DNA of 64,000 nucleotides from Naegleria gruberi (taxonomy: Eukaryota), in assembly GCA_000004985.1 (NCBI GenBank), contig GG738851.1; one strand, given 5' to 3'. Both the position numbers and the translations under genes were made by a program. Below are positions 2,195-58,600 of the stretch, in pieces. The number at the start of each line of letters is the position of its first letter. Position 1 is the stretch's first letter. The notes beneath the pieces are model-generated. The model made no database searches. It had not been told where the DNA came from and was given only the letters and a program-made list of their open reading frames with translations.

Positions 2195-2331
2195 TAAAGC
2201 TATGCATGAAATGAAACTAATCAAAATGAAAGAAAGTTTACAACAAGATTCTTTCGGAAAATTAATGGACAATTTCATAGCTTTTAAGGACGGGAAATTT
2301 CTCCTGGATTGTGTTTTTAAACAGTTTCAAT

Positions 2332-3207
2332 ATGAAAAAAATGTTCAAACTATTCGAATCAAGCCAACATACCAATCTTTATTCCAAGTTTCGTCCAACT
2401 TATCCTTCCACTTTATACGACAAGATCTTTCCTCTAATTTCTTCCACAAATTCCGAAGCTGGACTAAACATTTTAGATGTTGCTTGTGGAAGTGGTCAAG
2501 CTTCCTTTGATTTGGCTCAGAGAAATTGTAAAGTTTTGATCGGAGTTGATCCTTCGAATAATCAAATCGTCAATGCACAAGAAAAATTGAAAGAATGTCC
2601 ATTAGATTCTACCAAGATTTATTTTGAAGTGGGCAAGGCAGAAGAATTAGATACTATCGTTCAAAAATATTCGAATGAATTGAAAGTGGACGAAAGTAGT
2701 GATGAGCAAGGAGTTTTTGATTTAATTACAGTTGCACAGGGTTTGCATTGGTTTGATTTCCCTCAATTCTTCCAACAAGTTGACAAGTATCTCAAGAAGG
2801 GAGGTGTTTTTGCTGCCTGGTGTTATGTTGGAAATAGATTCGACTCGGAGAAAGCTCAGCAAGTTCGTAATTCGTTTTATGATGGCGAAGAATTGAAACC
2901 ATTCTGGAGTGAGAGAAGAGAATTGGTCGATTTGGAATATAAAACTATTCCACATGTTCCTTATCCAGAGAATGTTAAATTCGATATTGAATGGAAACAT
3001 ACAAAGATGAGTATGAGAAATTATATGAATTATATTAATACGTGGAGTTCTGTCAATTCGTATGGAGAAAAACATGGTATTGAAGCAAAAAACAAATTAT
3101 TGGAAGATTATCAAAATAGATTGATGGAAGCTTTTGGTTTTACTGACATTGATCAAGAATTTGATTATCACATTCCTTATCATTTACTTACAACAAGAAA
3201 ACCTTAA
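2332..3207 (+). CDS. SAM-dependent methyltransferase (Methyltransf_11 type, Tmt1/Crg1-like)
   Basis: ORF 2311..3207. The likely start is the internal Met at 2332 or 2341. Motif I is LDVACGSGQASFDLAQR. The N-terminal YSKFRPTYP element is typical of the trans-aconitate methyltransferase-like family. The stop lies only 30 nt from the stop of the convergent protease gene. Confidence 0.75.
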   Translation: MKKMFKLFESSQHTNLYSKFRPTYPSTLYDKIFPLISSTNSEAGLNILDVACGSGQASFDLAQRNCKVLIGVDPSNNQIVNAQEKLKECPLDSTKIYFEVGKAEELDTIVQKYSNELKVDESSDEQGVFDLITVAQGLHWFDFPQFFQQVDKYLKKGGVFAAWCYVGNRFDSEKAQQVRNSFYDGEELKPFWSERRELVDLEYKTIPHVPYPENVKFDIEWKHTKMSMRNYMNYINTWSSVNSYGEKHGIEAKNKLLEDYQNRLMEAFGFTDIDQEFDYHIPYHLLTTRKP

Positions 3208-3237
3208 TTATATCTTTTGATTATGGATATTGTGTAA

Positions 3238-6172
3238 TTAGATTGTAATAAAAAGTGTAATTATAAAGAAAATAAGCAAGGAATAGGACAAGACAATTCG
3301 GCCTGTTCCAGAAATGATTATGTCATCTGCTGGAATATCTATAGGACTTGCTGGAGTTTCAGTTCGAGAAACATCTCCAGTAATCACCATACTGAAAGTT
3401 TGAATACCCTTGTTTGTTGGTTTGGCACCAACTCTGATGGCAATGGATGTATCTTTGGCAATGCCTGGAACAGTGATACCTTCAACAGTATTCAATACAT
3501 CAATACTGGTTCCATTGTTACCGAAATAATTGATACCTCCTAAACTGACAATAAGATTAAGATCATTGATTAACTTCTTTTCCTTAACTGTTGAGCTGGT
3601 TTCAACTTGGGAAGATAAATCATACCAAGTCATTGTTACCTTAAGAGTGGTGGCTGAATTGGCAACAAATTTCATTTTGATTTGTTTGTTGGCATCTAGA
3701 GAATATCTGTTGACAAGATGAATTTCCTTAATTCTGTTAACACTTGAGGGGTCAGAGTCAATCTTGAGAACATTTAACAAATCGATTCTTCCGTATCCAT
3801 TGTACTTATTTGGAGAGCCAAATTGTGAGAGAGGAACATTAACAGAGTTAATTTGAACTGTTCCTTTCATTGTATCTGCAGAATGAATGGCCATGGCCTT
3901 AACCAACGTTCCAGCCAAAGTCTGTGAAGCATCCTTATTAAAAATATTATAATCAATCAACTTTTTCTTGTTGTCTTTTAACAAGTAATGTCTAATAAGA
4001 GCCAATCCTCCAGACTATAATATTATAAAAATTAATTAGAATTACCAAAGAGAACACTTACCACTCCAGGAGTACTAACAAACCACAAAGCACAGTATTA
4101 ATATGTAGATAACAGTTTGTTAAATAATTCTATTAAAGGGTTAAAATCAGTACATACCTCATTGATGTACCAGTCATTTGCTGAACTCCACATGAATCCA
4201 CATTACTTGCACTCATTATCCCATAACCAGGGGCAACAACTAAATGGTTCAATTACAAGAATAAATAAGAAACATACTATCAGGTTTGATTCTCTCATCA
4301 TACGTAGGTCCTCTACTCGATAACCCCCAAACATTTTCAAAGTTGTACAACGTGGTCCATGCATTATTGAAGAATTTCTTATAATAAGCTAATGTTGCAT
4401 AAGAGGCTCCGACTGTTATGACATTCTTTGCAGTTGCTGGAGCTCCCAATGTCCTATCAGAAGCGGATGTACCTTCATTTCCTGCAGCCACAACCACAGT
4501 CACTTCATCATTGGCATTCAAGAATGAATCCATAATAGCACTATCTGTATCATAGGCATTACAATAGTGACAACAACGAACACCTGAATCTTTGATGCAT
4601 TGATCATCTGATATCTTTTCTTTAGTATTATCACTTTTCACAATGTAGCAATCACAATCAAAATCACACTATAATGAAATTGTTATTTCATCTTCAAACT
4701 TTTTGAAATATTGAAATACTTACAGTATATGGAAGTGCACATCCCCAACTATTGCTTGAAATTTTTGCACCTGCCTTAAAGGCATTCTTTAAATTTGCTG
4801 TTATATCTCCTACATACAGACTTCCATAGGCTTCCTTCTGGGCATCCAAAGCATAGATTTTTGCATCCTTGGCCACACCATAATTTGAGGAAACAAATTC
4901 TGAGGTTGGTATTGTCTGTGGATAGCCAGCAATAGTTCCAACTACGTGTGTACCATGTCCATTAGTATCACTCAAATCAGTCTTATCAGCATCAGCTTTT
5001 CCATAGTAGATAATCTTTCTGTAGTTAGCATTGAGAGTGGTCTTGGTGCTTGGCTCATTAGTTCCAGTGAAAAAACAGTGATCTGTTGAAACACCAGTGT
5101 CAATGACAAGAACAATTTCAGAGGCGCCAGTAATTCCGTTATCCCATAAATAAGTATAATTAGAACCACCTCCATTTTGAATTACTTGATTAGTTCCATA
5201 ATTCTTAATTTCATAACTCAATTGTCTGGAGACCATATCCACTGAATCGTCATTGGTTAAAAATTCCAGGAATGCCTGCCCAACACCTTCTGATAATTCT
5301 CTAATAAATCTTCCAAGTGATGAACTTCTTTCAAATACCTTTTGAACTTGCTCTCTCTTTGTCAAGGATTCAACCAATGGATGATCGAATTTCCTTTGTT
5401 TTATCAATTTCCAAACTCCATAATCAAAATTTGCAAGAGTGATTTGAAGTCCTTGACTATCCACATTCCAATCCATTGAAAATAAAGAGTCTGTTTGTTC
5501 TTTCAAGAATTCCTTAACCTCGAATGTGTTTCTCTTATTATTCGAATACTCTAACTGACTAATATCTTCAGACTGAATTAAAACCGATGACATTAAATTT
5601 GACATGGTTCTTGTATAAGTTGAAGAGTACCAATTTTTCAATCGATTCATGGTTTGCAACCTCTCCATTTCATTCAATTTAGTATCAAGCTTGATTCTCA
5701 AACCATAAAGTTTTAAAGATTCTAATGAAAGATTTGAAAATGATCGTTTGTCAGAGTTGGTTACCTTCTTGATCCATTCAATAGATTTCTTTGCAAAATA
5801 ACTTTTAGTGAGTTCCTTAATTTGTTGATGAGAAAGCCTTGTTGTGAAAACAGAGACATCGGAATGAAATTGAAATTCCTTATAATTTTCAACCTTCATC
5901 AATGTTGCCATTCTACTCAAAAATTCATCATTCATAACAATATAATCCCACACCTTCACATGAACCAACATTCTATTATTTAAACTCTTCTCATCAGGTG
6001 TATTCACTCTAAACTTGTTCATCAAATTTTCCTCAGTGGCGTATCGTTCTACAATAGACGATCCTTTTGCTGAGGCCTCCAAAATTGCCATCAGAAAAAA
6101 CAATAAAAACACTGCTATCAATGTGATACACACACTGATTTTTCTCGCTGAAAATTCCCGAGTCATTTTCAA
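3238..6172 (-). CDS. subtilisin-like serine protease A (S8 family) with a long N-terminal pro-region and a hydrophobic C-terminal tail; 5 exons
   Basis: Exons on the minus strand: 6172..4724, 4668..4278, 4239..4158, 4074..4062 (a 13-nt micro-exon) and 4014..3238. Donors are gtaagtat, gtatgttt, gtatgtac and gtaagtgt. Acceptors are ttatag, atttag, tgttag and attatag. Catalytic motifs are VIDTGVSTDH, HGTHVVGTIAG, VVAAGNEG and GTSMSTPGVSGG. Phases are consistent across all junctions. The protein is about 903 aa. The C-terminus LLIFFIITLFITI looks like a GPI or TM signal. Confidence 0.8.
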
Positions 6173-7165
6173 TAACGATGAACCTTAATGCCTTTTTTTT
6201 CAATTTATTAAAATGACTTTCCCGCGCATTTTTCCTTAATTGAATATTTTCGACCAACAGAAAGATTATGAACTTTTATTTGTTTATCTTTCGGGAATTG
6301 TTTTTTCTTTGACACCAAGATCATCATGCTTTTTCCTTTTTTTAAACTTTAAGGTCATATGCTAATGAGTTGTGCATCTACAGATATTCGAACACTGTAG
6401 ATTATTCGGTAAAGAGGTTTCGAATATTGAATCATGAAACATCTGCAAGGATGAAAAAGGGAAATCTATGAATTAATATTTTAAGTTACTGAATGACCAA
6501 ATTGAAATTAACTAGTTTTATTAGTGTGGGTTAGTAATACATTCTTTCCAAATGCATGATTTGTTTGATGCCACATCTCAGGAGATATGATTTTAAGCAA
6601 TTTGGAAAACAACTTTTTTGTGTTTTAAAGTGCTTTATTTTGAAACAACACAAGAAATCAAACAATCTTTTGATAATTAGTTGAAGATTCAGCCAACTAT
6701 GATATCTTTTCAAAGAACATCAAGTCTTTATTCTATAATTGTCTAATCCTTAAAATTTTCATCTCACTTTCCAGCAAGAACCGTAAAAAACCTTTCGGAT
6801 TGAAGAGGTGAATAGTAGCTGTTGTGTTCGTACGAATACGATCTGTACATGTATTACTCTCGACATGTGCTGCTCGCGTCCCAGTTTCATAAACAAAGTA
6901 TTCTATTGGAGGTTGTATGACAGGCCTTTCACCTCCCTTGATGGCTTCTACAGCTACAACCTCAAACAACATTAGTCTTAATTCGTATTTTTCAGATGTT
7001 GTATGAGTATAGGGGATTACACCTTAAACTTTTTATCTCCAAACACTAAAAGAAACTAAAAAACAAAAAAACAAGACGATGATATCAACTCGAAATTTCA
7101 TCTCTGTCAATTGTGGTAAGATGATTACTATCAGCTGCAGCAACCAATGTTTATCGTATGTCCTC

Positions 7166-10100
7166 ATGTTGAGCATGCTTCTTTCCATACTTATTGTTTC
7201 AACAACTGTGGCTCAGGAAAGCTTTGTTTCAACTATTGCAGGTGGAGGTGTATGTGATGGTTATTTAGCAACTCAAGCCTCATTGGCATATCCTGGATCA
7301 CCAACTATTGGTCCAGATGGTTCAATTTATATAGCAGATAGTTCAAATCACAGAGTTCGTCAAGTTTATCCGAATGGTACCATTACTACCATTGCAGGAA
7401 CTGGAATTTCAGGTTATAATGGTGATGTCATTCCAGCAACGAGAGCTCAATTGAAAAATCCTGTATCAGTTGCTGTTAATTCGATTGGAGAAGTTTTCAT
7501 AAGTGATAATGGAAACAATAGAATTAGAAAAGTATTGACTAATGGTACAATTATTACTTTTGCAGGAAGTGGACAGACAACTTTTTCAGGAGATTATGGA
7601 TTGGCCACCAATGCAGGAATTAACTATCCCTATGGTATTGCACTCACTAGTATTGAAGAATTGATTATTTCCGATGTAAATCATAATAGAATTCGTAAAG
7701 TTTTAACCAATGGAACCATCTATACCATTGCAGGAAACAATATTCAAGGTTACAATGGAGATAACAAGTTGGCAACAAGTGCTTCCTTGTTTCTGTCCTT
7801 TGGTGTTAGTGTTGATGCAAATGATAATGTCTACATTGCGGACACTGACAATGATAGAATTCGTAAAGTTTTAACCAATGGAACCATCTATACCATTGCA
7901 GGTATTGGAAATAGTGGATTTTCTGGGGATGGAGGTTTGGCAACTGCAGCCAAGATTAGCTCTCCTGAAGGCGTTTCAGTTTCTCCTGAAGGCGAAGTTT
8001 ATTTTGCAGGTTTGTAATTCTTTCTATTCGAAACTTTAACTTTACAAGATACAAGTAATAACAGAATTCGAAAAATTTTGACAAATGGTACAATTTTAAC
8101 TGTTGCAGGAACTAGTTATGGATTCTTAGATAACACAACTGCCAGTCTTGCACTGCTAGGAAATCCTGGACAAATGTTCATTGACAAGAATAGTGGAGAT
8201 GTGTATTTTGCTGATAAAGGAAGTCACAGAATTAGAAAGATTTCTAATGGATTTATTACTTCTGTTGCTGGTTCAGGTTCTGCAACTTTTTGTGGCGAAA
8301 ACATTGCTTCAAGTGCATGTGCTTTAGCTAAACCAAAAGGTGCAGTCATTGATTCATTAGGAAATATTTATATTGCTGGTAAGTTTTATTATAACATAAT
8401 CATACGAATCCTCTTCTTTGCAATATATAGATACAAACAATAATCGTGTGAGAAAGATATCATATTTGGATGGTACCATTAACACCATTGCTGGAACAGG
8501 AAGCAATGGTTATAATGGAGATGGTATCTTGGCAACAAGTGCACAACTTAACAGACCTTCAAGTGTTGCTATGGATTCGGTTGGTAATGTGTTTGTTGCA
8601 GGTATGTACTTCTTTCTATTGGAAACTTTAAATTTCTACAAGATACAAGTAATAACAGAATTCGAAAAATTTTGACAAATGGTACAATTGTAACTGTTGC
8701 AGGTGTTGGATCTAGTGGTTTTAATGGTGATATTTTGGCAACAGATGCAAAATTGAGCAACCCTGTTTCAGTCACTATTGATTCGAATGATAATGTTTAC
8801 ATTGCCGATACTTACAATCATAGAATTCGAAAGATTTTACAGAATGGAAATCTAACAACAATTGTTGGATTAGGATCGAGTGGTTTTAATGGTGATTATC
8901 TATTATCAAACGGAACCAAATTAAACTATCCACAATCCATAGCATTTGATTCGAATGGTAACATGTATATTGCAGGTAAGTTGTTTTTTGTAAACAACTA
9001 ATCAAGTGAAAAATTGATTCCACTAATGACACAGATATGAACAATAATCGAATTAGAAAAATGTTAACTAATGGAACTATTATCACAGTAGCAGGAACAG
9101 GCGTTTCAGGTTATAACGGAGATGGAATATTGGCAACTGTTGCTCAACTCAAATATCCACAAGGAATTGCAATTGAAAATGATGAATTGATTATTGCTGA
9201 TTCTTCAAATCATAGAATTCGTAAAGTATTAACAAATGGAACAATTATCACCCTTGTAGGAACAGGTACTTTGGGATACAGTGGAGATGGTCTGGTTGGA
9301 GCCAATTCACAAATTAATAACCCATCAGGAGTCGTTGTAAAACAAAATGGTGAACTAATTGTTATTGATTCGGATAATAGTAGACTCAGATTGATTTCCA
9401 CACCTCGTCAATGTAATGGAACATTGGCAAGTGATTCAAATGTGTGTAGTGGTGTTGGTATTTGTAGTGCACCTGAGACATGTGATTGTGGAAACTTGTT
9501 TGGTGGTCAATTCTGTGAATATTCCAAATGTTTCGGTATTCTTTCGAATTCATCAAGTGTTTGTTCATCACATGGAATGTGTATTTCCCCAAATACTTGT
9601 TCTTGTAATTCTGGTTTTTATGGATTGAATTGTCAAGTTATGAAATGTTTTGGAATTGAAAGTAATGACACTTTAGTTTGTTCTGGAAATGGAAAGTGTG
9701 TTTCTATTGATTCATGCCAATGTTCAAATGGTTGGTCAGGTTCAGATTGTTCAATTCTTTCATGTTTTAATATCATGGCCAATGATACTGCTCAAGTTTG
9801 CAGTGGACATGGTAATTGCTCAAGTGTGGATAAATGTGATTGTGAATTTGGATGGTCAGGATTGAATTGTTCTGTAAACTCCACAATTCCAGAAACCAGC
9901 AACTCCACAATTCCTAATAACGACACCTCAATCAATACCAATGGTACTATTTTAAACAATTCTTCCACTACTAATGCCACTAGTTCAAATACTACCATCC
10001 CAACTACTAATCAAACTTCACCTCACTTGAATAATTCTTCAACAATTCCAGAAACAAGCAACTCCACAATTCCAAATAACGACACCTCAATCAATACCAA

Positions 10101-10548
10101 TGGTACTATTTCAAATAATTCTTCCACTACTAATGCAACTAGTTCAACAAATAATTCTTCCACTACTGATAGCAATAACAGTACACAAACAAATTCCACT
10201 CTTACTGGACAAAATTCGTGGAAATGTTTCGACATTCCAAATTCGGATTCGACAGTTTGTGGAGGTCATGGAATTTGCATTTCTCAAGATGTTTGTCAGT
10301 GTAAGGCCACTTCAGAAGATGGATATTGGACTGGATCAAATTGTACTTCATGTCAAACTAATTATTGTGGAAGTGGATGTAGAAGTAACATTTGTTCGAC
10401 CAATAATAACATGTATGCATTATTTACCTTAATGGCTGTTCCAGTAGTTGGAGGAATTGGATTAATAGCAGGTTTGGCATTTGGATTGAGATGGTGGTTA
10501 TTGAAACGTCCACAAATGATGAAAACTTCCACCCCTTCTGTAGTTTAA
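7166..10548 (+). CDS. type I membrane protein: signal peptide, about 14 NHL repeats, 5 tenascin-type EGF-like repeats, N/S/T-rich mucin-like stalk, TM helix, short tail; 5 exons
   Basis: Exons: 7166 (ORF opens at 7079; the signal peptide MLSMLLSILIVSTTVAQ starts at 7166)..8009, 8049..8378, 8431..8601, 8643..8975 and 9035..10548. Introns are 39, 52, 41 and 59 nt (gtttgtaa..acaag, gtaagttt..tatag, gtatgtac..acaag, gtaagttg..acag). The NHL motif [YF]IADxxNxRIRK[IV]LTNGTI recurs. The EGF pattern is C-x-G-x-G-x-C-x5-C-x-C-x2-G[WF]-x-G-x2-C. The TM segment is MYALFTLMAVPVVGGIGLIAGLAFGL. Confidence 0.8.
9883..10147 (+). repeat. tandem coding repeat (two near-identical copies of about 106 nt, period 159 nt) in the mucin-like stalk of the NHL/EGF gene
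   Basis: Copy 9883..9988 against copy 10042..10147. They encode IPETSNSTIPNNDTSINTNGTI(L/S)NNSSTTNATSS with only a few nucleotide differences. Confidence 0.7.
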
Positions 10549-10876
10549 AAGGAGTTTCAATAAATTATATTATTATTAATCCAATCGATTATATATTTTC
10601 GCATTTTGCAATAATCTGGCAACAATTTAAATTGTGTTGTTACATGAGAAAGATAATAATCAAAATGATAATCTATTCACTACAATATTTTAACCTTTGA
10701 AACCTTCAAGAAACGCCGGAACAAGAGAACCACCAGTTTTTCTGAAGCAAATCTTCTCGTTTCTACTTTCGCGCTTTTTTCAACGTTTCCGCCTTTTTTA
10801 AATTTTTAATTTAAAAAAATTTGGCTTCTGGTATGGCCTTTGTTATGTTGTTCCACTTGATGAAAAAAAAGCAAAG

Positions 10877-12244
10877 ATGAAACGAACCTCTTCCGAAGAC
10901 AACTCTCTCGATACTTTTTCATCATCAAAAAAGCAAAAATCCAATCAATTATTGGAAATGAAACCTCTAAATATTCTCGTTTGTCGGTATGATCCATTTG
11001 TTTTGGGTCATGTATTCAAGTTTTGTTCGCCAATGGATTTGCCATCACTTGCTGTGGTGTGTAAGGATTGGCATGATTTGTACTTTTCCCGTGAGAAGAT
11101 CGTACTCATTCTGAAGGAGTGGGTCGATACTCAATGGAATAACAAGATTTGTTCAGGAAAATTGACATGGACTTGGTCTGTGGAATATAACCCAGAGAAT
11201 GAATATCATTCATTGGCATATTGGTTAAGATTGTTGAATGTATTGAAGGAAGTGAATATAATGATCACAGATGAGCAAGGGAAAAAAGATGATAATGATG
11301 AAGAAGAAGAAAACGAAGAGGAACATGATGACGAAGAGGAAGAACAAGACGTAGAGGAAGATGAAGAGGAAGATGACCAAGAAGATGAAGGAGAGGATGA
11401 AGAAAATGATGAACATGATGATACTGAGGATTTAAAGAAGATATCACATTCTGTAGAGTTTATTGAGATGGGCAATACGAAACTGTGTAAAATCACAACA
11501 TCCTCAAATAGATTTCTCCTAGTTTCGAATAATGGGAATATTATCCGTTTCAAAAGGAAGAAGAAGGAATTGTTATGCTCTTTTTATGGAGGTTTATCAT
11601 ATCCAAGTTTTGAAAATTGTAATTATAGAAGTGATTATTGGGTTTCCCTTGTTCCAGGTAAAAAGGGAATTTTAGTTTTGCAATTAAAACAAATGGTGAA
11701 ATATTTGGGATTTGATGATGAATATTTAGTAGCATGCAATCTCATTGACATTATTGGATTGAAAAAAGCGAAGGTTTCTAATTCAAAGTATACAGATTAC
11801 CCTTGGGATCAAGGAGAAGCTGACGGAATAATAGAATTTGTGCCTTGGGAAATTGTAACTGCGTGCACAACAAGTGATTATGACATATCGCATATTTGTG
11901 AATGTTTGGATGATCGATTTTTCAATAGTTTCGACTTATTCTGCAAGTTAATAGAAGTCAGTACTACCATGTACACTGAATCCATAATCAAGAATATTTC
12001 TCTCAAAGTTGACAGTGAATTTTTCAAGAATAGAGGGTTGTTGAAATATTGTCGTCAGGAAAGAAAATTATTCAAGTTATTGGATGAGTCATTGAGACAT
12101 GATAAGGAATTCCTTAAAGAGGCTCTAAGAGTCAACCCATCCATTCTCAAGTATCTTTTTAAAAAGGAATATACGGATATCATTGAAATTGATAGAGAGC
12201 TGATTTTAGACTGCTTGAATCGTTTAAGTGTAGCTCAGCAATAA
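10877..12244 (+). CDS. F-box-like protein with a long acidic (D/E) low-complexity stretch
   Basis: 455-codon ORF. The N-terminal LNILVCRYDPFVLGHVFKFCSPMDLPSLAVVCKDWHDL resembles an F-box. Residues around 135-180 are poly-D/E. Single exon. Confidence 0.6.
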   Translation: MKRTSSEDNSLDTFSSSKKQKSNQLLEMKPLNILVCRYDPFVLGHVFKFCSPMDLPSLAVVCKDWHDLYFSREKIVLILKEWVDTQWNNKICSGKLTWTWSVEYNPENEYHSLAYWLRLLNVLKEVNIMITDEQGKKDDNDEEEENEEEHDDEEEEQDVEEDEEEDDQEDEGEDEENDEHDDTEDLKKISHSVEFIEMGNTKLCKITTSSNRFLLVSNNGNIIRFKRKKKELLCSFYGGLSYPSFENCNYRSDYWVSLVPGKKGILVLQLKQMVKYLGFDDEYLVACNLIDIIGLKKAKVSNSKYTDYPWDQGEADGIIEFVPWEIVTACTTSDYDISHICECLDDRFFNSFDLFCKLIEVSTTMYTESIIKNISLKVDSEFFKNRGLLKYCRQERKLFKLLDESLRHDKEFLKEALRVNPSILKYLFKKEYTDIIEIDRELILDCLNRLSVAQQ

Positions 12245-12373
12245 AGGGATATTTACTGTATTTCCATGCTCGAATTACTGTTGTGGCTAAACATCTGGTT
12301 GTGGTGTGTTGAAATTTTTAAATTGAGATTTATTCCAATAATATAACAAAAAGCAGTGTGTTATTGCATTAAT

Positions 12374-15357
12374 TTACATGAGAAAGTTAATAATCGAAAT
12401 GATCAAGATTAAGATAAGTGAACATCTAACATTTGTAGATTGTCCAACAACAGGATTTGAAAGAGAAGATGTGGCATTGATAACTTCAGTAAATGGACTA
12501 CCAGTTGATGGAATGGTAGTTGGAGCAGATGGTTTCTCTGCTAAGGTAACATCCCCAGTAATGACCATACTGAATGCTTGTTTTCCCTTATTGGTGGATT
12601 TGGCTCCAACCTTGACTGTGAAATTACCTTGTGGTAAATTGGAAATTACAATACTTTCTGCAGTGTTGACCGTATCGAGAGTGTTGCCTGTGATGGCTCC
12701 ATTTCCATAATAATATTTCTTTCCAACAACTGCGACAACACTAATGTCGTTGATGAGTTTCTTGGTTTTTACAGAGCTAAGTGTATCAGCAGCAGATGGT
12801 AAATCGTACCAAGCAATGGTAACTTTCAGTGTGGTTACAGAATTGGCCTTCAAAGGAATGTCAACTTGTTGATTGGCATCAAGTGAATATCTATTGGCTA
12901 CGAGAATATTCTTAATTCTGTTCACACTTGCTGAATCAGTGTCAATCTTCAAGACATTTTGTAAATTGATTCTTCCAAAACCATTGTACTTGTTTGGTGA
13001 GTTGAATTGACTCAAATACAAATCAGTACCTCCAATTTGCACAAATCCCTTCATGACTTCTCCTGAGTGCAGAATCATGGCTTTGACCAAAGTCCCTGAC
13101 AAGGTTTGAGAAGGTGAACTATTGAAAATATTGTAATCGACTAATTTCTTCTTATTATCCTTTACCAAGTAGTGTCTTACCAAAGCTAATCAATTATTGA
13201 AACATTAAATGTAAATAATTAAATAAAATCAATGCCAACTACTTACCTGCTGCTCCAGAAACTGCAGGAGTTGCCATACTATATATGCATTGAAAAAGAA
13301 ATGTTAAATAACAAAGCTACACATCTCAAAAGCACTTACCTAGTTCCAGATTTTCCTACAGGATCACAAGAAGCAGTATTCAAAGAACTGATTGTACTGT
13401 AACCTGGTGCAGCAACTGAAAAGATTAATGTTAAGCTTTCAATTGTCAATGAGTGAAATACTTACTATCTGGTTTGATTCTATTATCATAGGTAGGTCCT
13501 TTTCCAGAAAAACTAGCCATATTCTCAAATTCAAAAACGGTATAATTTCTGCTTGTAAAGAACTGCTTGTAATAGGAAGATGGTGCATAGGAAGCGCCAA
13601 CTGTCAATGAATTCTTTGATGTGGATGGATCTCCCAAATTGGAATCAGTTGAGTATTCACCATCGTTACCAGCAGCCATTACAACAGTCACTTCATCATT
13701 TGAACTCAAAAAAGTGTCAACTCTATTACTGTCATATCCATAAAGATTACAATAGTGACAACATCTGGTACCAGTCAATGCCATACAAGAGGCATCAGTG
13801 ACAGCAGCACCTCGAGTATTATCAGAATTCAATTCATAGCATTTACAATCATAATCACACTAATAATGAGATTCAAGTTGACTGATTTTTCATATTATGA
13901 AAACTTACATCATAAGGATTACCACATCCCCAACTGTTACTTGAAATTTTAGATCCAGCATTGGTAAATGCATTAGACAAAACGGTATTCATATCACCAA
14001 TGTATAATCCTCCATTTGCTCCTGCTTGCACATCCACTGCATAGAGTTTGGCATCCTTGGCCACACCAACATTCTTATCCATGACTGTGGTTCCAAGTGT
14101 TTGTGGATATCCAGCAATGGTTCCTGCTACGTGAGTGCCATGACCTTCTCCATCTGTCAAATCACCATACTGTCCATTCTTATTATAGTAAACGACCTTT
14201 CTATAATTCAAATTAACACTTGTCTTGGTGCTTGGTTCACTACTGCCAGTAAAGAGACAATGTCCAAGAGTTATTCCAGTATCGATAACTGAAACAACCT
14301 CAGAGGCACCTGTAATTCCATTATTCCACATGTAGGTATAATTGGATCCACCTCCATTTTGAATCACTTGATTGGCTCCATAATTCTTAATCTCATGAAT
14401 ACGTTGACGAATGACCACATCTACAGAATCATCACTCGACAAGTAATTTAACAATTCCTGACCCATCTCACTTGACATGTCCTCTATTAATCCTTCAAGT
14501 TCTTGATTCATCTTGAAGAACTTTTGAATTTCTTCTCTTCTTTTCAATGATTGAACAATTGGAGAATCAAATTTTCCTTCTTTGATCAATTTCCAAACTC
14601 CGTAATCAAAGTTTGCGAGTGTGACTTGAACAGCATGAGTTTCACTTTGCCAATCGAGGTCGAATAGAGAGTTGGCTTGATCTCTGATGAATTCACGAAT
14701 GATAGTTTCGTCTTGTTGAGTGGAAAGTGCAGTTTCGGCAAGTTTCGAATTATGAATGGATTGTTGAATTTGTTGAATGTTTAGTTTGGACAAGGATCGA
14801 GTCATTTTTTGAGTATAACTGGAAAGGTACCAATTTCTCAATCTATTCATCGTTTGCAATCTTTCCATTTCGTTTAGTTTACTATCTAATACAATCTTCA
14901 AGCCACCAAGTTTCAACGAATCCAAACTAAGTTTCGTAAATGATTTCTTATCTGAATTCGAAACCTTCTTGATCCATTCAATATTCAATTTAGCAAAATT
15001 ATTATTCGAAAGCTCTTGAATCTGAAGTGTTGTGAGTCTTGTAGTAAAAACTGGAATGTCGGAATGAAATTGAAATTCCTTGTAATTGTCAACCTTCATC
15101 AATTGTGCCATTCTATTGAGAAAGTCATCTGTCATGATGGTATTATCACGTATTTTGACATGTACGAGCATTCTTTGGGTGTTTGAAATTGTTTGTGTGG
15201 TTTGTACATTTAATTTTGGAGTGTTGGAAACTGTTTCGAATAAATTTTCTACATGGTTGTATGTTTCCAATAGTTTGGAAGGTTCTTGTTGTAGTGAGAA
15301 TCCAATGCAACAAAGGAGTGCTGCAAAAAGTATCAATTTGGCAGCACCTAATGTCAT
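12374..15357 (-). CDS. subtilisin-like serine protease B (paralog of A); 5 exons
   Basis: Exons on the minus strand: 15357..13909 (1449 nt, the same length as exon 1 of A), 13859..13466, 13415..13340, 13278..13247 and 13185..12374. Donors are gtaagttt, gtaagtat, gtaagtgc and gtaagtag. Catalytic motifs are VIDTGITLGH, HGTHVAGTIAG, VVMAAGNDG and GTSMATPAVSGAA. The protein is about 920 aa. The C-terminus ILILIISIINFLM is hydrophobic. Confidence 0.8.
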
Positions 15358-15666
15358 GTTGTTATTTTTTTTAATGATGATTTATTCTGAAACAGCTGAC
15401 AGATATGCTTCTTAGAAAGGAAAGCGAACCCATGAAAATATTCGAATATTTCCCTATCTGACTGTGAGATAACATTACAAAAACATGTGAAAACCAACCA
15501 TAACCAACTAAAAACGAATGAAATAACAATTTACAATTCCTTGTTTGAAATGAAAGATAATTTGTTGTGTTGGATTTTGTTAGAAGAATAATGAATGAAT
15601 GTATTCTAATAATTCAAAGTTGTTAAAAAGCATTCAAGTTTCATGAAGATCAGATCGGTTACGGAT

Positions 15667-20896: not shown

Positions 20897-20967
20897 CTCG
20901 AGTGCCGGGAATTGAACCCGGGTCGCCAGAGTGACAGTCTGGAATGCTACCACTATACCACACCCGA
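20897..20967 (-). tRNA. tRNA-Asp (anticodon GTC)
   Basis: Reverse complement is TCGGGTG TG GTATAGTGGTAGCAT T CCAGA CTGTCAC TCTGG CGAC CCGGG TTCAATT CCCGG CACTCGA G. Cloverleaf with a 7-bp acceptor stem, TPsiC loop TTCAATT and anticodon loop CT-GTC-AC. It closely resembles eukaryotic tRNA-Asp. Confidence 0.85.
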
Positions 20968-34988: not shown

Positions 34989-35062
34989 TACAGCGAGCGG
35001 GGCTTGAACCCGCGACCTTAAGCGTGTTAGGCTTACGATCTAACCAACTGATCTATCGCTGC
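34989..35062 (-). tRNA. tRNA-Val (anticodon AAC)
   Basis: Reverse complement is GCAGCGA TA GATC AGTTGGTTA GATC G TAAGC CTAACAC GCTTA AGGTC GCGGG TTCAAGC CCCGC TCGCTGT A. The anticodon loop CT-AAC-AC is identical to eukaryotic tRNA-Val(AAC). The acceptor stem closes with a G-T wobble. Confidence 0.8.
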
Positions 35063-55681: not shown

Positions 55682-58600
55682 TTATTTTTTGATACCATAA
55701 CCACCTCCACCTGGTGTTTGAATAATGACACAATCTCCTGGTTCGACCTTGAAAGAGTTCTTTCCTCCTAGAGAGTGAATGAGACCTCTCTTGAGAATGA
55801 GTAAATTCTTTCCTTTTTGTCCATCTTTTCCACCTCTACAACCAGATGGTGAGAAGACTCTTCTCTCTGAGAGAATTCCAACTTGAAGTGGTTCAAGGAA
55901 TTCAACTTCTCTCACAACGCCATTTCCTCCTCTGAATTCTCCTTCACCTCCTGAATTTGGTCTCACGCTGAACTGTTTCAGAATGAGCGGATATCTTCTT
56001 TCGAGAATTTCAACATCGGTAATTCTGGTATTGGTCATGTGGGTGTGAACAGAGTCTTCTCCTTGATAGTCCTTTCCAGCTCCAACACCTCCACAAATAG
56101 TTTCATAATAGCCCCATGATTCATTACCGAATGTGAAATTATTCATGCATCCTTGACTACAGGCAGCTGCTGAGAATGCCTTAAGAATAACATCGGTCAC
56201 TCTTTGTGAGGTCAATACGTTACCTGCTACTACACCGACGATACCATCTTCACCAATATCTAAAAGTGAGTGTTTTTCAATCTTGATTGAGATTGGTTCC
56301 AGACATCCTTGATTGAGAGGAATGTCCTGTTTGACAAGACATCTCAAGCTGTACAAAATTGCAGAAATAGTAATGGCCTTTGGTGCACTAATTGACAAAT
56401 AGTTAGAATAATTGAAAAATTGATAGAGAATACTTACTTGGTATTACCTAAAAAATTTCAATTTCATGTAATATTCCAATAGTTAGTTCAATAAAAATTA
56501 AGAGCTTGGGTTAAAATAATATAATAATAAGCTACAAACCCAACATCATTTCTGAAGTTCCTGTGAAATCAAAGATTGCAACATGTTGCTTTTCAGAGCC
56601 GTTTCTAAAGTTTTCATGTTTTTGATTTTTGATTGTCAAATGCAAGTTGATTATTGATCCGTCATCCATAAAATCTTGGGAATGCAAGTCAATGCTGGCA
56701 GCATTCTTATCTTGTGAGTGTTCCTCAAATACTTGTTGCAACATTTCCTTGACTGCGTATTCTGCATTGTCCTGAACATATTGCATATAGCTTTGGACAA
56801 CTTCTAATGAATATTCATTGATGAGTTCTTGCAAAAGTGAAATACCTTTAGTATTAGAAGCAACTTGAGCTTTCATATCTGAAATATTATCCTTTATGGC
56901 TCTGGCACCTGCTTCTTTCAATAAATTTGTAATTCTCTCTTCTTGGAATTCACCATTTTCTACTAATTTACATGAAACAATTGCCATACCCTCCTCAGAT
57001 AGCAATCTACTGAATGGAGGCATTGAACCTGGCTGAATACCACCAATGTCAGCATGATGTCCACGATTGGCAACATAGAAAGCTACTTTTCCATTTGAAT
57101 ATACAGGAGTTATTACGGTAATGTCAGGCAAATGGGTGCCTCCAGCACAAGGGTGATTGGCTACAATTACCTCGCCTTCCTTCCAACTATCTCCCAGAGT
57201 TCTAATTTGATATCGAACTGCCTCACTCATTGAACCCAAGTGAACAGGCAAGTGTGGAGCATTGGCAAGGAGAGAACCATCTGGAGAGAAGAGAGCACAT
57301 GAAAAATCGAGTCTTTCCTTAATATTGGTTGAAGTTGATGTTCTTTGGAGGGATCTACCCATTTGTTCAGCAATACTCATGAAACGATGATTGAAAATAC
57401 TCAACCTAACAGCATCAACCTTCTTCAATTCATTCACATTGATTTCTTGTGTCTTTGTTGAGGAGAGAGTAATTTCCACATCACCATACTTGGTAATTAG
57501 AGCTGTTCCATGTGGTTCAACAACAATTGTAGTTGTGTCGTGAATAATAATAGCAGGGCCGTGAACCTTATCTCCAGCAGCCAAATGTTGCAAATCATAG
57601 ACAGCTGTCTCAGTCCAACCTTGTTCAAAGTATGTCTTGGTTGAGGTAATTGGTTTTGGCTCAGACTTAGATGAAGCAATTTCAATCTTACTGATGGATG
57701 GTGTAATACCAATACCTCTCACTCTAATATCATCGACAATGATTGGTCTTCCAACAACAGTAAATCCATATTCTCTCTTGTAGGATTTTTCAAATTCAGA
57801 TCTGTAATCTCCTCCAAGGATTGAATCTTGTTGCTTGGCCTCCTCTGGAACAGATGTCATGATTGAATAGTCGGTTCCCTTATACTTGAGATTGAGATAA
57901 TGTACAATTTTGATGTTGGAGTTGTCAAATCCAGAGTTTTTCAATCTCTCAACAACTCTTCCCTCGATTTCTTTCAATCTGTTGGAGAAGTATCCGAAAT
58001 TTTCCTCAGCATATTCTGCAGTACTTGGCTCTTGTTCATCCAAAACAACATCAGCAAGTCCCAACCCATAAGCACTCAAAATACCAGATTGTCTTGGAAT
58101 GAAAACCTTTTTCATACCTAAATTATTGGCAATAGCTTGAGCATGTTGTGAACCAGCTCCACCAAATGAACACAAAGTATGATCACGAGTATCATAACCT
58201 TTAGAAACTGTAATGGAACGAATTGGTCTTGACATGGCCTCGTTGGCAACTTGAATGAAACCATAGGCAACTTCTTCTGTTGTTTTGAGTTTGGCATTTT
58301 GTGGATCTCTCTTCAATTCAAAATCATTGACTTGTTTGGTCAATTCTTCGAATGCAAGTTTGGTGGCTTCATAATCGAGTGGTTGATCTTCAGTTTCACC
58401 AAAAATTTTTGGGAAGAATTCTGGTAATAATCTTCCAAGGAATAAGTTGGCATCAGTAATGGCCAAATGTTTGATTGGGAATGATCCTTGCTTTCTATAA
58501 CAGACTGGACCAGGATTAGCTCCAACAGAACTTGGACCAACTATTTCACAATTAAGAATGCTATTCGTGAAAATACATACCTTCAAAGATACCTGTCTTT

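Follow-up and report, generated by a model that had tools for sequence, protein, structure and literature searches.

Results

Two spliced subtilase genes on contig GG738851.1

A 64,000-nt stretch of the Naegleria gruberi contig GG738851.1 (hereafter the window, whose numbering is used throughout) carries two subtilase genes, A and B, on its minus strand. A methyltransferase gene adjoins the 3′ end of A, and two plus-strand genes, encoding an NHL/EGF protein and an F-box/DUF4116 protein, lie between A and B. The window is AT-rich (33–37% G+C) and gene-dense. Its open reading frames (ORFs) are interrupted by short GT..AG introns, which identifies it as eukaryotic; these introns, together with the Naegleria-like genes, ruled out a prokaryotic or phage origin.

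To define both genes, we read the minus strand of positions 3150-6400 and 12300-15600, spliced the exons manually and verified the frames by script (Table 1). Splicing confirmed the two five-exon genes of the original prediction at their outer coordinates, with the start of A moved from 6172 to the first ATG at 6166. All eight introns are of the GT..AG type, begin with GTA(A/T)GT and measure 38–83 nt (55, 38, 83 and 47 nt in A; 49, 50, 61 and 61 nt in B). Both spliced frames are open throughout, and each exon of A and B was recovered by tblastn with B as the query. The encoded proteins are 56% identical over 881 amino acids (aa). An exon 1 of exactly 1449 nt had also been claimed for both genes. 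This applies to B, but exon 1 of A spans 1443 nt from its ATG and reaches 1449 nt only from a TTG at 6172; the equal length is an artefact, because A had been counted from a TTG ORF start usable only to a bacterial ORF finder.

Exon 4 of A is a 13-nt microexon, and skipping it would shift the frame and remove the conserved TPGV motif. Introns 1 and 2 occupy the same codon positions in A and B, whereas those of introns 3 and 4 are offset by 6 and 13 nt between the copies (4015-4157 in A; 13186-13339 in B). The relatives from Naegleria and Willaertia have no introns at this site; Naegleria fowleri FDP41_000177 has one elsewhere, directly after the HGTH motif. The displacement suggests that, once the gene had been duplicated, introns slid or were gained independently.

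Table 1 Features of the two subtilase genes and of their surroundings in the window
Feature	Position	Strand	Remarks
Subtilase gene A	6166..3238	-	5 exons, 901 aa; script-checked splicing
Gene A, coding exons	6166-4724, 4668-4278, 4239-4158, 4074-4062, 4014-3238	-	stop included
Subtilase gene B	15357..12374	-	5 exons, 920 aa; script-checked splicing
Gene B, coding exons	15357-13909, 13859-13466, 13415-13340, 13278-13247, 13185-12374	-	stop included
Predicted signal peptide, A	6166 to ~6068	-	equivalent of B
Predicted signal peptide, B	15289..15357	-	aa 1 to ~23, MTLGAAKLILFAALLCCIGFSLQ; hydrophobic N-terminus read from sequence; helix in AlphaFold2 model
Pro-region module 1, B	14965..15174	-	aa 62-131; beta-alpha-beta-beta-alpha-beta, ferredoxin/I9-like fold in AlphaFold2 model
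Pro-region module 2, B	14401..14907	-	aa 151-319; strand order as module 1 in AlphaFold2 model
Asn of N-Y-G-x-N-Q, predicted pro/mature junction, A	5203-5201	-	Asn322; (near-)invariant alignment columns
Asn of N-Y-G-x-N-Q, predicted pro/mature junction, B	14383..14385	-	Asn325; (near-)invariant alignment columns
Catalytic Asp, A	5101-5099	-	Asp356; family alignment
Catalytic Asp, B	14281..14283	-	Asp359; family alignment
Catalytic His, A	4957-4955	-	His404; family alignment
Catalytic His, B	14140..14142	-	His406; family alignment
Eight-cysteine insert, A		-	Cys476-Cys517; between NSWG and AAGN
Eight-cysteine insert, B	13749..13926	-	Cys478-Cys520; between NSWG and AAGN; interrupted by intron 1
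Oxyanion-hole Asn, A	4479-4477	-	Asn545; family alignment
Oxyanion-hole Asn, B	13665..13667	-	Asn548; family alignment
Catalytic Ser, A	4165-4163	-	Ser637, codon TCA; splicing and alignment
Catalytic Ser, B	13341-13340 + 13278	-	Ser640, codon AG|T split by intron 3; splicing and alignment
C-terminal beta-barrel (jelly-roll), KP-43 type, B	12551..12919	-	~aa 740-862; phmmer to SubHal, Foldseek of proxy model
Hydrophobic tail, A	3297-3241	-	IVLSYSLLIFFIITLFITI, preceded by ISGTGR
Hydrophobic tail, B	12377..12421	-	SLILILIISIINFLM, preceded by GQSTNVRC
NHL/EGF gene	7079..10548	+	five exons, 1092 aa; Pfam NHL x9 and teneurin-type EGF
NHL/EGF gene, exons	7079-8009, 8049-8378, 8431-8601, 8643-8975, 9035-10548	+	
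F-box/DUF4116 gene	10877..12244	+	455 aa; between NHL/EGF gene and B
S-adenosylmethionine (SAM)-methyltransferase gene	2311-3207		adjoins 3′ end of A; no intron in window
tRNA-Asp(GTC) gene	20897-20967	-	between protein-coding genes
tRNA-Val(AAC) gene	34989-35062	-	between protein-coding genes

A KP-43-type protease core

Both proteins contain the DTG, HGTH, AAGN and GTSM motifs, with the triad in the order Asp-His-Ser and an oxyanion Asn, and can be regarded as the paralogous subtilases with shared catalytic motifs that they had been taken for. Peptidase_S8 (PF00082) was the sole Pfam match, located in mid-protein with E-values of 8e-41 in A and 4e-43 in B and scores of 140.7 and 148.1 bits against a gathering cut-off of 21.8. 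A sequence search of the PDB with mature B returned SubHal of Bacillus halmapalus (5fax, E 3e-26) and KP-43 of Bacillus sp. KSM-KP43 (1wmd, E 2e-25) as the top two matches, the next being 15 orders of magnitude weaker. In a third stretch of the phmmer alignment, residues 740-859 of B correspond to SubHal 313-431, part of the C-terminal barrel of that enzyme (i-Evalue 8e-5).

As a full-length model we used that of a proxy, the N. fowleri homologue P0116 (42% identical to B), calculated from a 29-row alignment that included the exon translations of A and B; its predicted local distance difference test score (pLDDT) was 79.9. Foldseek searches with this model ranked KP-43 and SubHal first (E ~1e-29, template modelling (TM) score 0.80 over the whole 434-aa target), and Tk-SP, Kex2, furin and S1P followed far lower. 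A and B are KP-43-type S8A subtilases with a catalytic domain and a beta-barrel. Their last 265–280 aa, described before as C-terminal domains of about 270 aa with hydrophobic ends, do end in hydrophobic residues but fall into several parts instead of one domain: the C-terminal portion of the catalytic domain, a ~120–140-aa beta-barrel, a linker and the tail. We rejected membership in the kexin/furin group (S8B), as Pfam gave no match to the P-domain (PF01483) and the TM-score of Kex2/furin over the target was ~0.4. Tk-SP from Thermococcus kodakarensis and kexin/furin share with A and B an S8 domain followed by a C-terminal beta-sandwich, but their fit is weaker (TM-score over the target 0.4–0.67, compared to 0.80 for KP-43).

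In KP-43 and SubHal, as in A and B, the subtilisin domain is directly followed by the beta-barrel and preceded by a long N-terminal pro-region. The prepropeptide of the KP-43 precursor comprises ~200 aa; the pro-region of A and B is ~300 aa long and unrelated in sequence. A and B further differ in being eukaryotic and intron-bearing, in a 43-aa, eight-cysteine insert that separates NSWG from the oxyanion Asn, and in the linker and hydrophobic, GPI-like (glycosylphosphatidylinositol-like) tail that continue from the barrel, whose end is free in the bacterial enzymes.

The codon class of the catalytic Ser differs between the copies (TCA in A, AG|T in B). Among the relatives, four use TCN (metagenomic P0003, locus L002, position 11822; Willaertia magna, L003, 11882; Naegleria lovaniensis 002536, L004, 11888; N. 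fowleri 012105, L009, 12207), and N. fowleri 000177 uses AGT (L001, 10757). A change from TCN to AGY at the active-site Ser, in a family with redundant copies, apparently happened twice.

A long pro-region with two predicted modules

Since exon 1 (481 aa in A, 483 aa in B) already includes the catalytic Asp and His, the pro-region that follows the signal peptide amounts to about 300 aa and not to the 480 aa given in the title of the original prediction. It ends near the N-Y-G-x-N motif (residue 322 in A, 325 in B), where it would be cleaved; residue 1 of mature SubHal and KP-43 aligns ~5 residues downstream of this motif. The domain search proposed for this region found no Pfam family, I9 (PF05922) included, at E-values up to 1 in the 11 pro-regions of A, B and nine homologues. 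A pro-region profile produced only noise against PDB sequences, and an exhaustive comparison with 1.84 billion cluster representatives retrieved only eight clusters at E ≤ 1e-3.

The AlphaFold2 model of B residues 1-332, based on an 11-sequence alignment, reached a pLDDT of 81.7 (≥90 across most of residues 60-320) and a predicted TM-score of 0.74. It contains two consecutive modules (Table 1) and, directly N-terminal to the catalytic domain, the beta-alpha-beta-beta-alpha-beta open sandwich that characterizes I9 domains. In module 2, multi-helix insertions (~100 aa, confidently predicted) take the place of both helices, and the last strand abuts the mature N-terminus. The shortest homologue, P0003, has in the alignment a module 2 of ~85 aa without insertions, which supports module 2 as an expanded form of the module 1 fold; module 2 would have an I9 fold as well. 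A comparison of both modules by hhalign was not significant (E 0.04, probability 1.3%), so that an origin by internal duplication is not demonstrated by sequence. Likewise, hhalign detected no similarity between the pro-region profile and the N-terminal parts of the homologues from the diatom and Chara (probability <1%). In all of the nearest whole-protein homologues, among them those of Phycisphaerae bacteria, a diatom and Chara, 215–430 residues precede the catalytic Asp; a long pro-region is thus the rule in this branch of S8 and no peculiarity of A and B.

Based on the model, we read the pro-region as a bipartite I9-fold prodomain of two tandem modules. The additional N-terminal domain suspected at the outset is borne out insofar as the region is longer than one I9 domain and has an extra module, but both modules are predicted to have the I9 fold. 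The opposite expectation, ordinary I9 domains plus a linker, comes close to the model as well, but there are two modules, neither is recognizable by sequence, and the length derives from helical insertions instead of a linker. Like the I9 propeptides of subtilisin E, PCSK9 and fungal alkaline protease, the pro-region of A and B lies directly upstream of the catalytic domain. It differs from them in its two tandem modules instead of one, in the ~100 aa of helical insertions in the second module, and in the lack of a PF05922 match in 11 of 11 family members. A structural match to MESD/Boca had a Z-score equal to that of generic domains with a ferredoxin-like fold, ribosomal protein S6 among them. 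For bacterial propeptides of the KP-43 subfamily, it was shown experimentally that they thread the active site and are self-cleaved (PMC11982257).

Cysteine-rich insert and hydrophobic tail

The insert comprises ~43 residues with eight conserved cysteines and, in B, follows the pattern C-x5-C-x3-C-x-C-x17-C-x7-CC-x2-C. In the family alignment, it is conserved in all Naegleria and Willaertia members and in P0003; it is absent from the diatom and Chara homologues and unmatched in SubHal. It was poorly modelled in the P0116 proxy (pLDDT 38–67). N. gruberi NAEGRDRAFT_65607 (P0369) lacks exactly the first and the last of these cysteines. Their joint loss suggests that Cys1 and Cys8 form one disulfide, and the remaining cysteines may be paired too.

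Both proteins end with 15–19 hydrophobic residues (mean Kyte-Doolittle hydropathy 2.6–2.8 over the last 15 aa), after which the chain terminates. A hydrophobic terminus is found in nine of ten family members, namely A, B, four N. fowleri proteins, N. gruberi 65607, W. magna 007123 and P0003, and in most of them small polar residues (S/G/N/T) lie 5–10 positions before the hydrophobic run. N. fowleri 012105 and 012147 are the only pair with a terminal charged residue (R or K) and have an internal Lys in the run. The NHL/EGF protein encoded next door ends differently, with a classical transmembrane segment followed by the basic cytoplasmic tail RWWLLKRPQMMK. A signal peptide, a terminal hydrophobic run, a polar spacer and small candidate omega residues can all be read from the sequence of A and B. 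The tail is probably a GPI-attachment signal, as the original prediction had proposed, and A and B would accordingly be GPI-anchored proteins. Evidence of GPI-anchored proteins in Naegleria has been presented in a pangenome study (PMC9928731).

Relatives in Naegleria and Willaertia

A cluster look-up yielded seven named relatives: N. fowleri FDP41_000177, FDP41_004448, FDP41_012105 and FDP41_012147, N. gruberi NAEGRDRAFT_65607, N. lovaniensis C9374_002536 (assembly identity according to PMC8040595) and W. magna ABK040_007123. All of them are annotated as 'hypothetical' or 'Peptidase S8/S53 domain-containing', and the literature on Naegleria subtilisins contained nothing on the A/B family and no function for the named relatives. 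These proteins are 34–46% identical to A and B and share their full architecture of pro-region, cysteine insert, barrel and tail. Unlike A and B, they are encoded by genes that are intronless or have introns elsewhere; these genes occur as one copy per locus and have no NHL/EGF gene beside them. A scan of JGI metagenomes with patterns from the family alignment matched 600 stretches, with no relative among them.

Neighbour-joining grouped A and B as sisters with 100% bootstrap support, beside the four N. fowleri paralogues. As each copy has the other as its closest relative, the duplication is lineage-specific, and their identity of 56% indicates that it is old.

Some further observations concern individual members. 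The loci of N. lovaniensis 002536 (L004) and N. fowleri 012105 (L009) have a GH31 glycosidase gene and a gene of ~450 aa upstream in common and look like positional counterparts; the two subtilases are only 38% identical and are placed on separate branches of the tree. N. fowleri 012147 is a 98%-identical second copy of 012105 on the same contig. In P0007 and P0023, two distant metagenomic S8 homologues, the protease and teneurin-type EGF domains (PF25024, PF23106) are combined in one polypeptide; the EGF type is the same as in the NHL/EGF gene of the window.

Conservation of the gene neighbourhood

We analyzed the 10-kb flanks of five related subtilase genes: N. fowleri 000177 and 012105, N. 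lovaniensis 002536, the W. magna gene and the metagenomic P0003 gene (loci L001, L009, L004, L003 and L002, respectively). An NHL/EGF gene or a second subtilase was found within this distance at none of the five. Three further loci were anchored on the methyltransferase, one from N. lovaniensis (L005) and two that are N. fowleri-like (L006, L007); by tblastn they contain nothing similar to A, B or the NHL/EGF gene. The regions upstream of A and B share chance 8–14-mers only, with no significant similarity or common promoter motif. The pair had been described as bracketing the opposite-strand NHL/EGF gene, which is correct for its position and strand, but the F-box/DUF4116 gene lies inside the bracket too. 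The implied link between the proteases and this gene did not survive the synteny comparison: the neighbour is lacking at all five related loci, and L005 has neither the subtilases nor the NHL/EGF gene. The arrangement is not conserved, and the receptor gene looks like a chance neighbour.

Other genes in the window

The NHL/EGF gene encodes a type I membrane protein with an NHL propeller, teneurin-type EGF domains and a mucin stalk. Its four introns (8010-8048, 8379-8430, 8602-8642, 8976-9034) are all in phase 1 and all split the codon at one position of the NHL repeat, the G|AT for Asp in an '(I/F/V)AD' motif. It looks as if these introns were either copied along with the repeats or repeatedly inserted at one proto-splice site. 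The stalk contains two copies of the 24-aa unit STIPETSNSTIPNNDTSINTNGTI, rich in Ser, Thr and Asn (9880-9951 and 10039-10110). They lie between the EGF block and a membrane-proximal Cys-rich region and are probably part of a heavily glycosylated, mucin-like spacer.

The F-box/DUF4116 protein contains a long acidic (Asp/Glu) low-complexity stretch. A DUF4116 gene also follows the methyltransferase in N. lovaniensis; tblastn gave no match between the two even at E 1, and we rejected their orthology on this ground. The methyltransferase itself shares 55% identity with its counterpart in N. lovaniensis and 37% with an N. gruberi protein, which is probably a paralogue. Its counterparts in N. lovaniensis (L005, 10001-10968), L006 and L007 have one intron, visible as a ~60-nt tblastn gap, and synteny with these genomes stops directly downstream of the methyltransferase. 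Further along the window, an oxoprolinase ORF (56532-58586) is 71% identical to an N. lovaniensis protein and 99% identical to a protein on a 5.4-kb ENA metagenome contig (L008, ERZ929261). None of the proteins encoded in the window had an exact match in a collection of 15 billion proteins, which includes the proteomes of N. gruberi, N. fowleri, N. lovaniensis and W. magna.

Discussion

In our proposed explanation, to which we assign a probability of roughly 0.7, A and B go back to a single gene that was duplicated within this lineage; each encodes a subtilase zymogen that is secreted and then tethered to the cell surface, and both belong to a KP-43-like S8 subfamily restricted to Naegleria and Willaertia (Heterolobosea). 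The signal peptide would direct the protein into the endoplasmic reticulum (ER). There, the ~300-aa pro-region, with two tandem I9/ferredoxin modules of which the proximal one is enlarged by helical insertions, would act as an intramolecular chaperone and temporary inhibitor that blocks the active site, before its autocatalytic removal near the invariant N-Y-G-x-N. The mature enzyme of ~60 kDa would consist of a subtilisin fold stiffened by the disulfide-rich insert, followed by the KP-43-type barrel. Exchange of the C-terminal hydrophobic peptide for a GPI anchor would keep the protease on the cell surface, where it may digest extracellular protein or trim surface proteins.

The best functional analogy is TgSUB1, a GPI-anchored micronemal subtilase of Toxoplasma gondii that trims surface proteins (PMC10470614). 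It resembles A and B in that it comes from a protist and combines a subtilase with a prodomain and, at the C-terminus, a GPI signal, which in A and B is only predicted; it is not specifically related to them and was not among the homologues found.

Four points weigh against our explanation. Neither Pfam nor profile searches reveal an I9 sequence signal in the pro-region. The domain layout of the mature part, as modelled, rests on a proxy of 42% identity. The splice sites, including those of the microexon in A, are derived from sequence logic and homology. Finally, N. lovaniensis 002536 has no hydrophobic tail.

The first of these points also feeds a different reading of the N-terminal 300 aa, as a permanent non-catalytic domain for substrate recognition, oligomerization or sorting that is kept in the working enzyme. 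The region is four times as long as an I9 propeptide, its ~100 aa of predicted helical insertions have no counterpart in known prodomains, and sorting information can reside in a prodomain, as reportedly in that of TgSUB1. On the other hand, the last strand of the region abuts the position that matches the mature N-terminus of KP-43 and SubHal; the linker is modelled with low confidence in the P0116 proxy (pLDDT <50 for residues 356-359), as expected of a cleavable segment; long N-terminal regions occur in all nearest homologues; and propeptides of the KP-43 subfamily are self-cleaved where this was tested. We consider a permanent domain distinctly improbable. Somewhat more room must be left for the hydrophobic C-terminus being a plain transmembrane anchor, or a signal for ER retention or degradation, instead of a GPI signal. 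A run of 15–19 residues could span a membrane, and in A the spacer between the candidate omega residues and the run is short (SGTG-R). Yet no residues follow the run in A, B and most relatives, whereas the true type I protein next door continues with RWWLLKRPQMMK after its transmembrane segment, and most members have small residues at the appropriate distance ahead of the run; a membrane anchor of another kind therefore appears unlikely to us. That one copy is a decaying pseudogene, or that the five-exon models are an artefact of reading ORF fragments, could be suspected from the differing positions of introns 3 and 4 and from the microexon that A requires. With both spliced frames wholly open, every exon found by tblastn, the four catalytic residues, eight insert cysteines and the tail retained in both copies, and end-to-end alignment of the spliced proteins with annotated Naegleria proteins, this suspicion is hardly credible.

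The neighbourhood raises the question of whether the proteases and the NHL/EGF protein form a functional cassette kept by selection, either as enzyme and substrate or receptor, or through a MESD-like prodomain chaperoning the propeller-EGF protein. The three genes lie close together and all their products are predicted surface proteins, some distant S8 homologues (P0007, P0023) are fused to teneurin-type EGF domains, and in Toxoplasma adhesins are trimmed by a GPI-anchored subtilase. We nevertheless judge such a cassette very unlikely: neither the NHL/EGF neighbour nor a second copy occurs within 10 kb at any of the five related loci, the methyltransferase-anchored loci of N. lovaniensis and the N. 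fowleri-like genomes are devoid of either gene, an unrelated F-box gene shares the bracket, the upstream regions of A and B lack significant similarity, the MESD match stays at the level of a generic fold, and the fusions in P0007 and P0023 concern a very common extracellular module. Because the duplication is lineage-specific, absence from other species does not strictly exclude a young cassette, in which GPI-anchored A and B would serve the propeller-EGF adhesin next to them as its dedicated sheddases or maturases, with the distal MESD/Boca-like pro-module doubling as a released chaperone or targeting factor; we regard this version as highly improbable.

As lineage-specific duplicates of a surface-tethered subtilase zymogen, A and B would represent a small, undescribed clade, restricted to Heterolobosea, of the well-known KP-43-type protease subfamily. 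To the common core this clade would add a tandem I9-fold pro-region that is invisible to sequence profiles, an eight-cysteine insert and a GPI-like tail, and the pro-region may merit addition to domain databases. Four members of the clade are present in the brain-eating N. fowleri, annotated merely as 'Peptidase S8/S53 domain-containing'. The practical value is modest, and the main worth lies in recognizing the family, including its N. fowleri members, together with the cryptic tandem prodomain. If these proteases are truly surface-anchored, the N. fowleri members would be candidate enzymes for degrading matrix or trimming surface proteins, and possible targets for antibodies or inhibitors.

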